NCBI GenBank assembly: GCA_001782805.1
Contig: MFPT01000019.1
Location: forward strand, 1,801 to 65,800
Origin: Candidatus Magasanikbacteria bacterium RIFCSPHIGHO2_01_FULL_41_23
Lineage (GTDB): Bacteria > Patescibacteriota > Patescibacteriia > Magasanikbacterales > UBA922
Direction of reading: 5' to 3'
DNA length: 64,000 nucleotides
Shown here one piece after another: positions 28,928-30,020 of this stretch. The position numbers and the translations under genes were made by a program. Below the pieces are notes generated by a model. It was not told the DNA's origin, did no database searches, and was given only the letters and a program-made list of their open reading frames with translations. The first letter of the stretch is position 1; each line of letters opens with the position of its first letter.

Positions 28928-29872
28928 ATGGCCGTTAACACTAAAGAAATCAAACAACGCATCAAATCGGTCAAGAACACTAAAAAAATGACGAAAGCCA
29001 TGGAATTGGTGTCGGCCGCCAAGATGCGCAAGGCCGTGCAGGGCGCCCTCGCTACACGCATGTTTGCCACGCTCGCACGCGAGTTGCTGGAACAATTGGC
29101 GAGTGGGAACAAACCAACTTCGCCGCTTTTGGAAGAACGACCGGTCGCGCGTTTACTCGTGATTTTAATCACTTCCAATCGCGGTTTGTGCGGCAGTTTT
29201 AACGCCAATATTTTTAAACGTGCCTGGCAGATTTTGCAGGATAAAACTAACGTGGCCCGGCACCGCGGACTTGATGGCAAAGATATTATTCCCTTGAGTG
29301 ATGTCGCCGTTGATGTGATTGGTGTGGGTAAAAAAAGCGCCACGTTTGCCAAACGACATAATTATCCTTTGATCGCGGCGTTTGATCATTTAAGCGAACG
29401 GCCGGCATTTGAAGATATTTTGTCCATCAGTTCCATGGCGCGCAAAGCCTTTACCGAAAAAACGTATGATAAAGTAGTGGTGATGTACACACAATACAAT
29501 TCCAGTTTGTCGCAAACCGTCAAAGCCCGCCAATTGTTGCCCGTGTCGCCACATGATTTGGAAAAAATGTTGGTAGTTGGAGAGAAAGCCGAAGAAATTC
29601 CATCACTCAAACAAAACGGTTATTTATTTGAACCAAATCCCGAAACAATTATCGCCACAATTGTTCCGCGTTTAGTTGACATTCAATTATACCAAGCGAT
29701 TTTGGAATCGTCGGCCAGCGAGCACAGCACGCGCATGGTTGCCATGAAAAATGCCAGCAGTTCGGCCGGCGACATGATTAACGGATTAACTTTGGAATTT
29801 AACAAAGCCCGACAAGCCGCGATTACGCAAGAGATTGCCGAGATTGCCGGTGGAGCCGCGGCATTAGAATAA
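28928..29872 (+). CDS. atpG: F0F1 ATP synthase subunit gamma
   Basis: IKQRIKSVKNTKKMTKAMELVSAAKMRKA N-terminal signature. C-terminal helix. Confidence 0.9.
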   Translation: MAVNTKEIKQRIKSVKNTKKMTKAMELVSAAKMRKAVQGALATRMFATLARELLEQLASGNKPTSPLLEERPVARLLVILITSNRGLCGSFNANIFKRAWQILQDKTNVARHRGLDGKDIIPLSDVAVDVIGVGKKSATFAKRHNYPLIAAFDHLSERPAFEDILSISSMARKAFTEKTYDKVVVMYTQYNSSLSQTVKARQLLPVSPHDLEKMLVVGEKAEEIPSLKQNGYLFEPNPETIIATIVPRLVDIQLYQAILESSASEHSTRMVAMKNASSSAGDMINGLTLEFNKARQAAITQEIAEIAGGAAALE

Positions 29873-30020
29873 TTTTAGTATTATGTAATTTTGTTTACAG
29901 TAACTGTTTGAGGTCGCCTGTGCTCGGTCAATTTATAGATTCAGAATCGGTTCGGCATAGGCCACTAGAGCACAGGACGAGCGAGTTTTACTGAAAATAA
30001 AATTACATAATACTAAAATT
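29871..30020. repeat. ~150-bp palindromic element, copy 2 (arms AATTTTAGTATTATGTAATTTTGTTTACAGTAA / TTACTGAAAATAAAATTACATAATACTAAAATT), between atpG and atpD
   Basis: Same architecture as 4857-5010, and both share the TTTTACTGAAAA box. Arm differences between the two copies are compensatory. Confidence 0.85.

Follow-up and report, generated by a model that had tools for sequence, protein, structure and literature searches.

A palindromic repeat has been inserted into the ATP synthase operon of Candidatus Magasanikbacteria bacterium RIFCSPHIGHO2_01_FULL_41_23, between atpG, which encodes the gamma subunit, and atpD, which encodes the beta subunit. The DNA analyzed here – the window – is a stretch of 64,000 nucleotides from contig MFPT01000019.1 (positions 1,801–65,800, assembly GCA_001782805.1). 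The element in the atpG-atpD spacer is an insertion and not ancestral spacer, it belongs to a family with several copies, its hairpin has been maintained between copies, and the hairpin contains a conserved internal loop that is strand-asymmetric. The element is probably a copy of a lineage-restricted family of small, non-coding, dispersed hairpin repeats, non-autonomous and similar to MITEs (transposable elements of the miniature inverted-repeat type) or REPINs, and was probably inserted in an ancestor of the species.

The insertion between atpG and atpD

The original prediction placed a highly structured palindromic element of about 150 bp at 29871–30020. Such an element is present, and its true extent is three bases wider on each side (Table 1). 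The two arms of its outer stem, P1, are 36 nt long, 94% complementary, and separated by 84 nt, with a second pair of arms (29917–29925 and 29968–29976) nested between them. When folded as RNA, the element forms one rod-like hairpin with a minimum free energy (MFE) of −61.6 kcal/mol. The MFE of 200 dinucleotide shuffles was −27.1 ± 3.6 kcal/mol, which gives the native sequence a z score of −9.5, and none of the 200 was as good. When folded as DNA, it has an MFE of −38.3 kcal/mol (z score −11.2). The element is non-coding, containing no open reading frame (ORF) of at least 50 amino acids. There are four long local inverted repeats of this size class in the window, and three of the four have the architecture of the atp element.

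Six more contigs, from independent assemblies at NCBI, ENA, and Logan, span the atpG-atpD spacer without a single base difference, which excludes an assembly artefact. In total, eight independent assemblies of the species have the element, always in unchanged form. A locus identical to that of the window is also found on contig MFPY01000009.1 (GCA_001782895.1).

The element is absent from three relatives. In contig L010, whose AtpG is 88% identical, the atpG stop codon is followed by a 23-bp spacer and then atpD, and in L011 (75% identical) the spacer is 9 bp. L013, the closest of the three (93% identical), has the same native sequence as L010, though its contig ends 84 bp later, short of atpD. 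In both L013 and L010, GGAATAA is directly followed by TATTAATACAATATGGAAATT, while in the window AGAATAA is followed by ca. 146 bp and then by TTATTTAATACATTATGGAAATT. Alignment of the window to the empty site leaves a single clean gap of ca. 148 columns. The original prediction had allowed that related genomes might share the spacer, as they would if it were a conserved regulatory hairpin within the operon; the comparison across relatives gave the opposite result.

Another relative, L001 (91% identical), has an unrelated, REPIN-like palindrome in the same spacer. The junction after the gamma stop codon has thus been colonized at least twice independently by different hairpin repeats, and an insertion at this junction, which had been described as unusual, is less so in this clade than was supposed. 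The L001 palindrome (10983–11064) consists of GTCATTCTGGCGAAAGCCAGAATCCAG doubled, each arm with a small hairpin of its own. It resembles a true REP doublet and recurs at 18981–19065 of the same contig.

Other copies of the repeat family

The family has three copies in the window, dispersed 10–25 kb apart among housekeeping genes (Table 1). The copy at 4856, in the spacer between infB and trxA, has two 17-mers, AATTTTGTTTWCAGTAA and GCGAGTTTTACTGAAAA, that match the atp copy exactly. The copy at 39978 lies in antisense orientation between an addA-like helicase-nuclease gene and a gene for a methyltransferase. At matching places it shares TGTTTGAG, CGCCT, AGGACG, and CGAGTTTT with the atp copy. 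A covariance model, R1, was built from the cores of the three copies. It scored the atp copy at 115.5 bits, the 4856 copy at 112.9 bits, and the 39978 copy at 95.5 bits, with the next best match in the window at 19 bits. Two of the copies begin at or directly after a TAA stop codon.

Short spacers in relatives show that the other two copies are lineage-specific insertions as well. The infB-trxA spacer is 407 bp here, compared to 60 bp in L196 (86% identity in IF-2) and 14 bp in L200 (80%). The spacer between the addA-like gene and the methyltransferase gene is 166 bp here, compared to 1 bp in L176 (69%) and 58 bp in a 72% relative. All three loci are therefore empty in relatives. With the additional copies at 4856–5010 and 39978–40130 and the empty sites in close relatives, the proposal that a repeat was inserted between atpG and atpD has been borne out. 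No copy of the family was found when ca. 85 kb of DNA from relatives was searched with R1, and contig L177 of the same species, which covers 9 kb upstream of the window, has no further copy.

The infB-trxA spacer contains another inverted-repeat element (4717–4819, AAGCAAACT...AGTTTGCTT) just upstream of the family copy. In an 86% relative, the same spacer holds an element of 141 bp (L195, 12035–12175) that has CCACTC, GGGTAAACAG, and TCGAG in common with this one but is oppositely oriented.

Shared architecture of the copies

All three copies have the same fold – an AT-rich outer stem, P1, of 30–36 bp; an asymmetric internal loop with (C/UG)-UG(U/C)(U/A)UGAG on the 5' side and CGAGUU on the 3' side; an inner stem, P2, in which the first pairs are conserved (NCCG/CGGN-like) and an A or U is bulged; and a variable tip of 42–55 nt. 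The arms of the atp and 4856 copies are 85% identical. Four of the four outer-stem substitutions between them are compensated on the opposite arm, and both copies are imperfectly paired at positions 7 and 11 (numbered from the inside). The arms of the 39978 copy differ from these except for RTAAWWTTT-like termini and an inner AA/TT, and both P1 and P2 are paired in the atp and 39978 copies despite their different sequences.

Neither half of the loop (TGTTTGAG, CGAGTT) is the reverse complement of the other. The element is hence not one unit simply doubled, and its strand is defined. There is also no internal hairpin within the arms. In the atp and 4856 copies the strand with the loop motifs is the mRNA sense strand, and the sense fold is 8–10 kcal/mol more stable than the antisense fold, an advantage due to G-U pairs.

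Inverted repeats of 36 bp that flank an asymmetric core raise the question of an invertible DNA switch, in which the 84-bp segment between the repeats would be turned around. The core of one family copy is indeed opposite in orientation relative to its flanking genes, and the second element family of the infB-trxA spacer is in opposite orientation in a relative. However, the atp copy has the same orientation in all of the assemblies that span it, there is no recombinase gene in the 64-kb window, and an invertible promoter would have no need of the nested hairpin that the core forms. A switch is extremely improbable.

Table 1. Positions of the atp genes, of the hairpin repeat between atpG and atpD with its parts, and of the other two family copies in the window
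Feature	Position	Strand	Remarks
ORF of 539 amino acids without assigned function, between atpA and atpG	27271–28890	+	
atpG (ATP synthase gamma)	28928–29872	+	Pfam domains on identical loci; 100% identity to NCBI ATP synthase F1 subunit gamma, Candidatus Magasanikbacteria bacterium (RIFCSPHIGHO2_01_FULL)
Whole palindromic element in the atpG-atpD spacer	29868–30023	+	156 bp; loop motifs read in mRNA sense (+ strand)
Outer stem P1, 5' arm	29868–29903	+	atpG stop TAA (29870–29872) within the first pairs
Conserved internal loop, 5' side: C + TGTTTGAG	29904–29912	+	
Inner stem P2, 5' arm: GTCGCCTGTGCTC	29913–29925	+	
Variable tip	29926–29967	+	not conserved among copies
Inner stem P2, 3' arm: GAGCACAGG-A-CGAG	29968–29981	+	bulged A at 29977
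Conserved internal loop, 3' side: CGAGTT	29982–29987	+	
Outer stem P1, 3' arm	29988–30023	+	from inverted-repeat search
Native spacer remnant and atpD leader	30024–30074	+	collinear with the L013 and L010 spacer; unstructured in the centroid fold
atpD (ATP synthase beta)	30075–31448	+	Pfam domains on identical loci
Family copy 2, infB-trxA spacer	4856–5010	+	not in L196 or L200; P1 shares 85% identity with that of the atp copy
Family copy 3, between addA-like helicase-nuclease gene and methyltransferase gene	39978–40130	−	loop motifs and base of P2 conserved, stem sequence different

Mobility of the repeat

Some observations weigh against a mobile repeat. Whichever plausible boundary is taken, none of the three copies is flanked by a direct repeat of at least 2 bp such as a target-site duplication leaves. 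Boundaries of the atp copy at 29868, 29871, and 29873 were tried against the empty site of L013, and none is consistent with a target duplication. Pfam annotation of ca. 50 ORFs in the window turned up only genes with housekeeping functions, and none for a transposase, RAYT, integrase, or IS200/IS605 TnpA. Judging by their sequences, the arms are not conserved across all copies, unlike the terminal inverted repeats to which classical transposases bind. Finally, the correction of quasipalindromes by template switching during replication could have produced the compensated changes in the two arms without selection, so the compensated substitutions alone are no proof of an RNA function.

A mobile, non-autonomous hairpin repeat is still the probable explanation. 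The repeat entered the very short, AT-rich atpG-atpD spacer immediately after the atpG stop codon. Its spread would have depended on an enzyme acting in trans and recognizing, in place of long conserved terminal repeats, the structure together with a few bases, those of the loop and of the RTAAWWTTT termini, without producing a target duplication. In such a mode of mobilization the repeat would resemble the REP/RAYT or attC systems more than DDE-type MITEs.

Patescibacteria, the candidate phyla radiation (CPR), have gene-dense genomes of ca. 1 Mb that are thought to be streamlined. Three housekeeping junctions within 64 kb (atpG-atpD, infB-trxA, and addA-methyltransferase) each gained a palindromic repeat of ca. 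150 bp, and sister lineages gained unrelated palindromes at the same junctions. Short spacers after stop codons are therefore recurrent landing pads for hairpin repeats in this clade.

Consequences for the atp transcript

In the predicted fold of the atp mRNA, the hairpin is self-contained, and the UAA stop codon of atpG is in its basal pairs. In the predicted centroid structure, the 51-nt native leader ahead of atpD is unpaired, and the atpD start region is open. The element would be co-transcribed with the atp genes as a stem-loop with an outer stem of ca. 36 bp, a passenger in the atp transcript. The atpG stop codon would be buried in the base of the stem, and the native atpD leader downstream would stay free. 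A gamma-beta junction of 9–23 nt would have been replaced by one of 202 nt, and the likeliest consequence is that any translational coupling between gamma and beta would be lost. The insertion would also create a long segment of double-stranded RNA that RNase III-type enzymes could cut, as in mRNAs that contain Correia elements (PMC10969869). If the hairpin is cut, or if it stalls ribosomes, the co-expression of the gamma and beta subunits of the sole ATP synthase would be altered. The net effect was presumably mild enough to allow fixation.

Whatever its origin, the element may have been co-opted as a regulatory or processing hairpin within the operon, setting the gamma:beta ratio through a cut by RNase III or as a barrier that affects mRNA stability. 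A regulatory role of this kind is plausible by analogy with the Correia and ERIC elements, which are precedents for it (PMC10969869). A very stable hairpin, self-contained in the predicted mRNA and with the atpG stop codon in its base, would suit such a role, as would the greater stability of the sense fold in the two sense-oriented copies, and the element is fixed and invariant in all sampled populations. However, close relatives manage with their short spacers, and the family is also found in unrelated spacers, once antisense. A different palindrome at the same place in a sister lineage points to a permissive landing site rather than to a selected regulator. Co-option is therefore unlikely.

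A strong hairpin right after a stop codon might also be an intrinsic terminator or attenuator, keeping atpG and atpD transcriptionally apart, and a short UUUU run does follow the P2 hairpin, after GAG. The outer stem, however, is AT-rich and is followed by UAAUACAUUAUGG and not by a U tract, and a terminator scan found no terminator-like site at the element. Downstream of the element, promoter matches for atpD did not exceed chance level. One of the family copies is antisense to its flanking genes, and relatives have no such signal at the atpG-atpD junction. A terminator is very unlikely.

The loop module in other genomes

The core of the element consists of P1, C-UGUUUGAG, P2, CGAGUU, and the 3' arm of P1. 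Contig collections were scanned for its two loop motifs with the pattern TGTTTGAG N{45,75} GACGRNCGAGTTTT. There were 18 matches in genome_contigs and 24 in metagenome_contigs, which is about the number expected by chance. None of these matches was in Patescibacteria, and the distribution of the family is not bounded by this result because neither collection includes the source genome. In viral contigs, nearly all matches were also due to chance and had no stems. A BLASTN search of the element against plasmids and phages returned only short, AT-rich chance matches.

Of the matches in the genome and metagenome scans, only those in L149 were convincing. L149 is from a metagenome-assembled genome labelled Desulfurellales, and two copies of the module flank its flhA-flhF-flhG cluster. 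The first has a 10-bp P1 and a 13-bp P2, with a fold z score of −8.0 and an R1 score of 43.5 bits, and the second has a minimal P2 (CCG-UUU-CGG) and scores 24.3 bits. One match in a viral contig from IMG/VR, L198, was also accepted as an instance of the module. It is intergenic, lies beside other REP-like palindromes, and reads GCAAGAAAAU-C-UGUUUGAG-UCCGGCAGCAGCCGGA-CGAGUU-AUUUUCUUGC.

Other candidates were set aside. Matches in L150 and L171 have the right topology, but no significant fold (z score −0.8 for L150), and are doubtful. In L184, from the viral-contig scan, P1 pairs, but the match lies within a probable minus-strand ORF, and it was rejected. A search of L149, L150, and L171 against Rfam returned nothing relevant.

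The module copies of L149 are themselves flanked, on both sides of the flagellar cluster (150–400 and 7500–7600), by the paired repeats GTTTCGAGAACTTGATAAGAAA / GTTGAGAGAGTTTGATAAGAAA, and the whole is a composite intergenic repeat.

These instances suggest a broader, tentative proposal – that the core (outer stem, C-UGUUUGAG, a GC-rich hairpin that begins with NCCG, CGAGUU, outer stem) may be a previously undescribed structured module carried by dispersed intergenic repeats in at least three unrelated genomes, where it could be the recognition site of a mobilizing enzyme or of an RNA binder of the kink-turn (K-turn) type. If so, the elements would be a structure-defined, attC- or REP-like class of mobile hairpins and not ordinary MITEs, and would represent a new structure-specific mobile-repeat system. 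A variant of this idea is that the core is a functional motif of RNA or single-stranded DNA, possibly a K-turn-like module for protein binding with tandem G.A pairs beside a bulge, and that the elements in the window are expanded carriers of it. By inspection, the core could form G-C, A.G, G.A, and U.G pairs beside a 5' bulge, as in a K-turn.

Although both stems change, the loop motifs are conserved, as is the base of P2, and the loop halves are strand-specific in that they are not reverse complements. The same topology, with an unrelated but paired P1 and in exact register, is found twice in L149 and once in L198, and chance matches to the loop words lack stems. On the other hand, there are only six instances, and the search patterns behind those outside the window came from the window itself, so that their ascertainment is biased. 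The fold of the L150 candidate is not significant, the L184 candidate is inside a probable coding region, and part of the L149 motif is itself a small palindrome. The core does not match any Rfam family, and there is no protein with a Nop domain and no L7Ae or Tas protein among the Pfam-annotated ORFs of the window. The proposal of a widespread recognition module is accordingly rather unlikely, and that of a functional K-turn-like motif with the window elements as its carriers is quite improbable.

Other features of the window

The atp operon had been described as otherwise contiguous, but this does not hold. The 539-amino-acid ORF at 27271–28890 separates atpA from atpG, so the operon is split a second time. 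Its N-terminal segment resembles a signal peptide, and it has no match in Pfam, NCBIfam, or PDB. The C-terminal ca. 150 amino acids (residues 385–538) are common to more than 3000 proteins, often at the N-terminus of proteins of ca. 1200 amino acids. At the same position between atpA and atpG, L001 has an ORF of 230 amino acids, and L010 and L011 have none.

There is a perfect palindrome of 23+23 nt at 786–832 (GGAATCAATTGATAAATTTTATT / AATAAAATTTATCAATTGATTCC), 15 bp upstream of a gene for a methyltransferase. L177 has it as well, and it could be an operator or a terminator. The leucyl-tRNA synthetase gene (8242–11133, plus strand) encodes a NUDIX domain (residues 389–504) inserted after the editing domain, while no NUDIX domain is listed for the leucyl-tRNA synthetase of the relative L200. 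Between ca. 57300 and 58000, gene orientation switches from plus to minus, so that the genes converge, and the GC skew changes sign at the same place. This is possibly the replication terminus.

Contig L177 contains a non-coding region of 477 bp (1141–1617), ca. 8.5 kb upstream of the window, with GTTCAAATCCC, which resembles the T-arm of a tRNA, and CGCCGTTCGCTCG. The CGCCGTTCGCTCG motif is also found in the L195 element described above. The region may be an RNA gene or another repeat family.

Comparison with known systems

A search of the whole window against Rfam 15 gave no match at the gathering threshold. At the element, a permissive search returned only chance matches to families of the miRNA-precursor type, far below threshold. 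Several more specific identities were considered and rejected. A promoter-like match that points outward from the 3' arm (CTGAAA-17-TAAAAT) does not exceed what shuffled sequence gives. By inspection, CUGUUUGAG...CGAGUU resembles the CUGAUGAG...CGAAA of the hammerhead ribozyme, but the element has only two helices and the core bases differ. Also by inspection, AATTTC...GTAGAT in the 4856 copy, which is similar to a Cas12a repeat, is not conserved in the other copies, and the circovirus nonamer TAGTATTAT is in a stem and is not conserved. A retron non-coding RNA was rejected because there is no reverse transcriptase. TRAP sites, RAT sites, and a phiX-type nick site were dropped on inspection of the sequence.

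TIGR arrays, which are found in CPR bacteria, consist of tandem stem-loops beside a tas gene, with two variable spacers of 8–12 nt between box C/D motifs (PMC12045711). The element is similar in that it has palindromic stems around short conserved motifs and occurs in Patescibacteria. A TIGR or other box C/D-like guide RNA was nevertheless rejected – the copies are dispersed, the loops are conserved, and there is no Nop-domain gene nearby. A PATE derived from IS200/IS605, which would have a subterminal hairpin at each end, no terminal inverted repeats, and its tnpA elsewhere, was rejected as well, as the element is a single nested hairpin with inverted termini, and only the missing duplication fits. 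The attC sites of integrons are like the element in having a conserved structure with variable sequence and unpaired or extrahelical bases in the folded single strand. However, the ends of the element (AATAATTTTAG...CTAAAATTATT) do not have the RYYYAAC / GTTRRRY boxes, its neighbors are housekeeping genes, and there is no cassette array and no intI in the window, so attC was also rejected.

The element has much in common with MITEs. It is non-coding and within the size range of 50–500 bp, it has several copies, and both filled and empty sites are found, while a target-site duplication is not. Correia (NEMIS) elements in Neisseria and ERIC/IRU elements in enterobacteria are MITE-like palindromic repeats that lie in transcription units and act there, Correia through RNase III and ERIC through an exposed RNase E site (PMC10969869, PMC2229807). 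Like the repeat described here, they are non-coding, multi-copy, intergenic, and ca. 100–160 bp long, are often in operons or after stop codons, occur in either orientation, and form long hairpins when transcribed. Copies of Correia and ERIC are highly similar, with conserved terminal inverted repeats and, in Correia, a TA duplication, whereas the arms of the element diverge with compensation and there is no visible duplication. Its most conserved part is instead the asymmetric internal loop, it has no sequence similarity to either family, and its host is a member of the Patescibacteria. Chunjie, a MITE found in Geobacter uraniireducens, is described as inserted between two genes of an operon without disrupting it (Chen et al. 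2008, in PMC10969869). The element is likewise within an operon, but Chunjie has conserved terminal inverted repeats and direct repeats, and the element has neither in recognizable form.

The element also resembles REPINs in its long intergenic hairpin, its compensated structure, and its lack of a target duplication. REPINs, the subject of work by Bertels and Rainey in 2011, are reportedly intergenic hairpins of ca. 100 nt that keep their structure through compensatory changes, leave no target duplication, and are presumed to be mobilized by RAYT as structured single strands. A REPIN is made of two inverted REP copies whose motifs are reverse complementary, however, which does not hold for TGTTTGAG and CGAGTT, and in the strict sense the element is no REPIN. 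No RAYT gene was seen in the 64-kb window, the rest of the genome being outside the search. The repeat represents a new family among the small dispersed palindromic repeats, whose kind is well known, and is a tidy example of a known phenomenon in an under-studied phylum.

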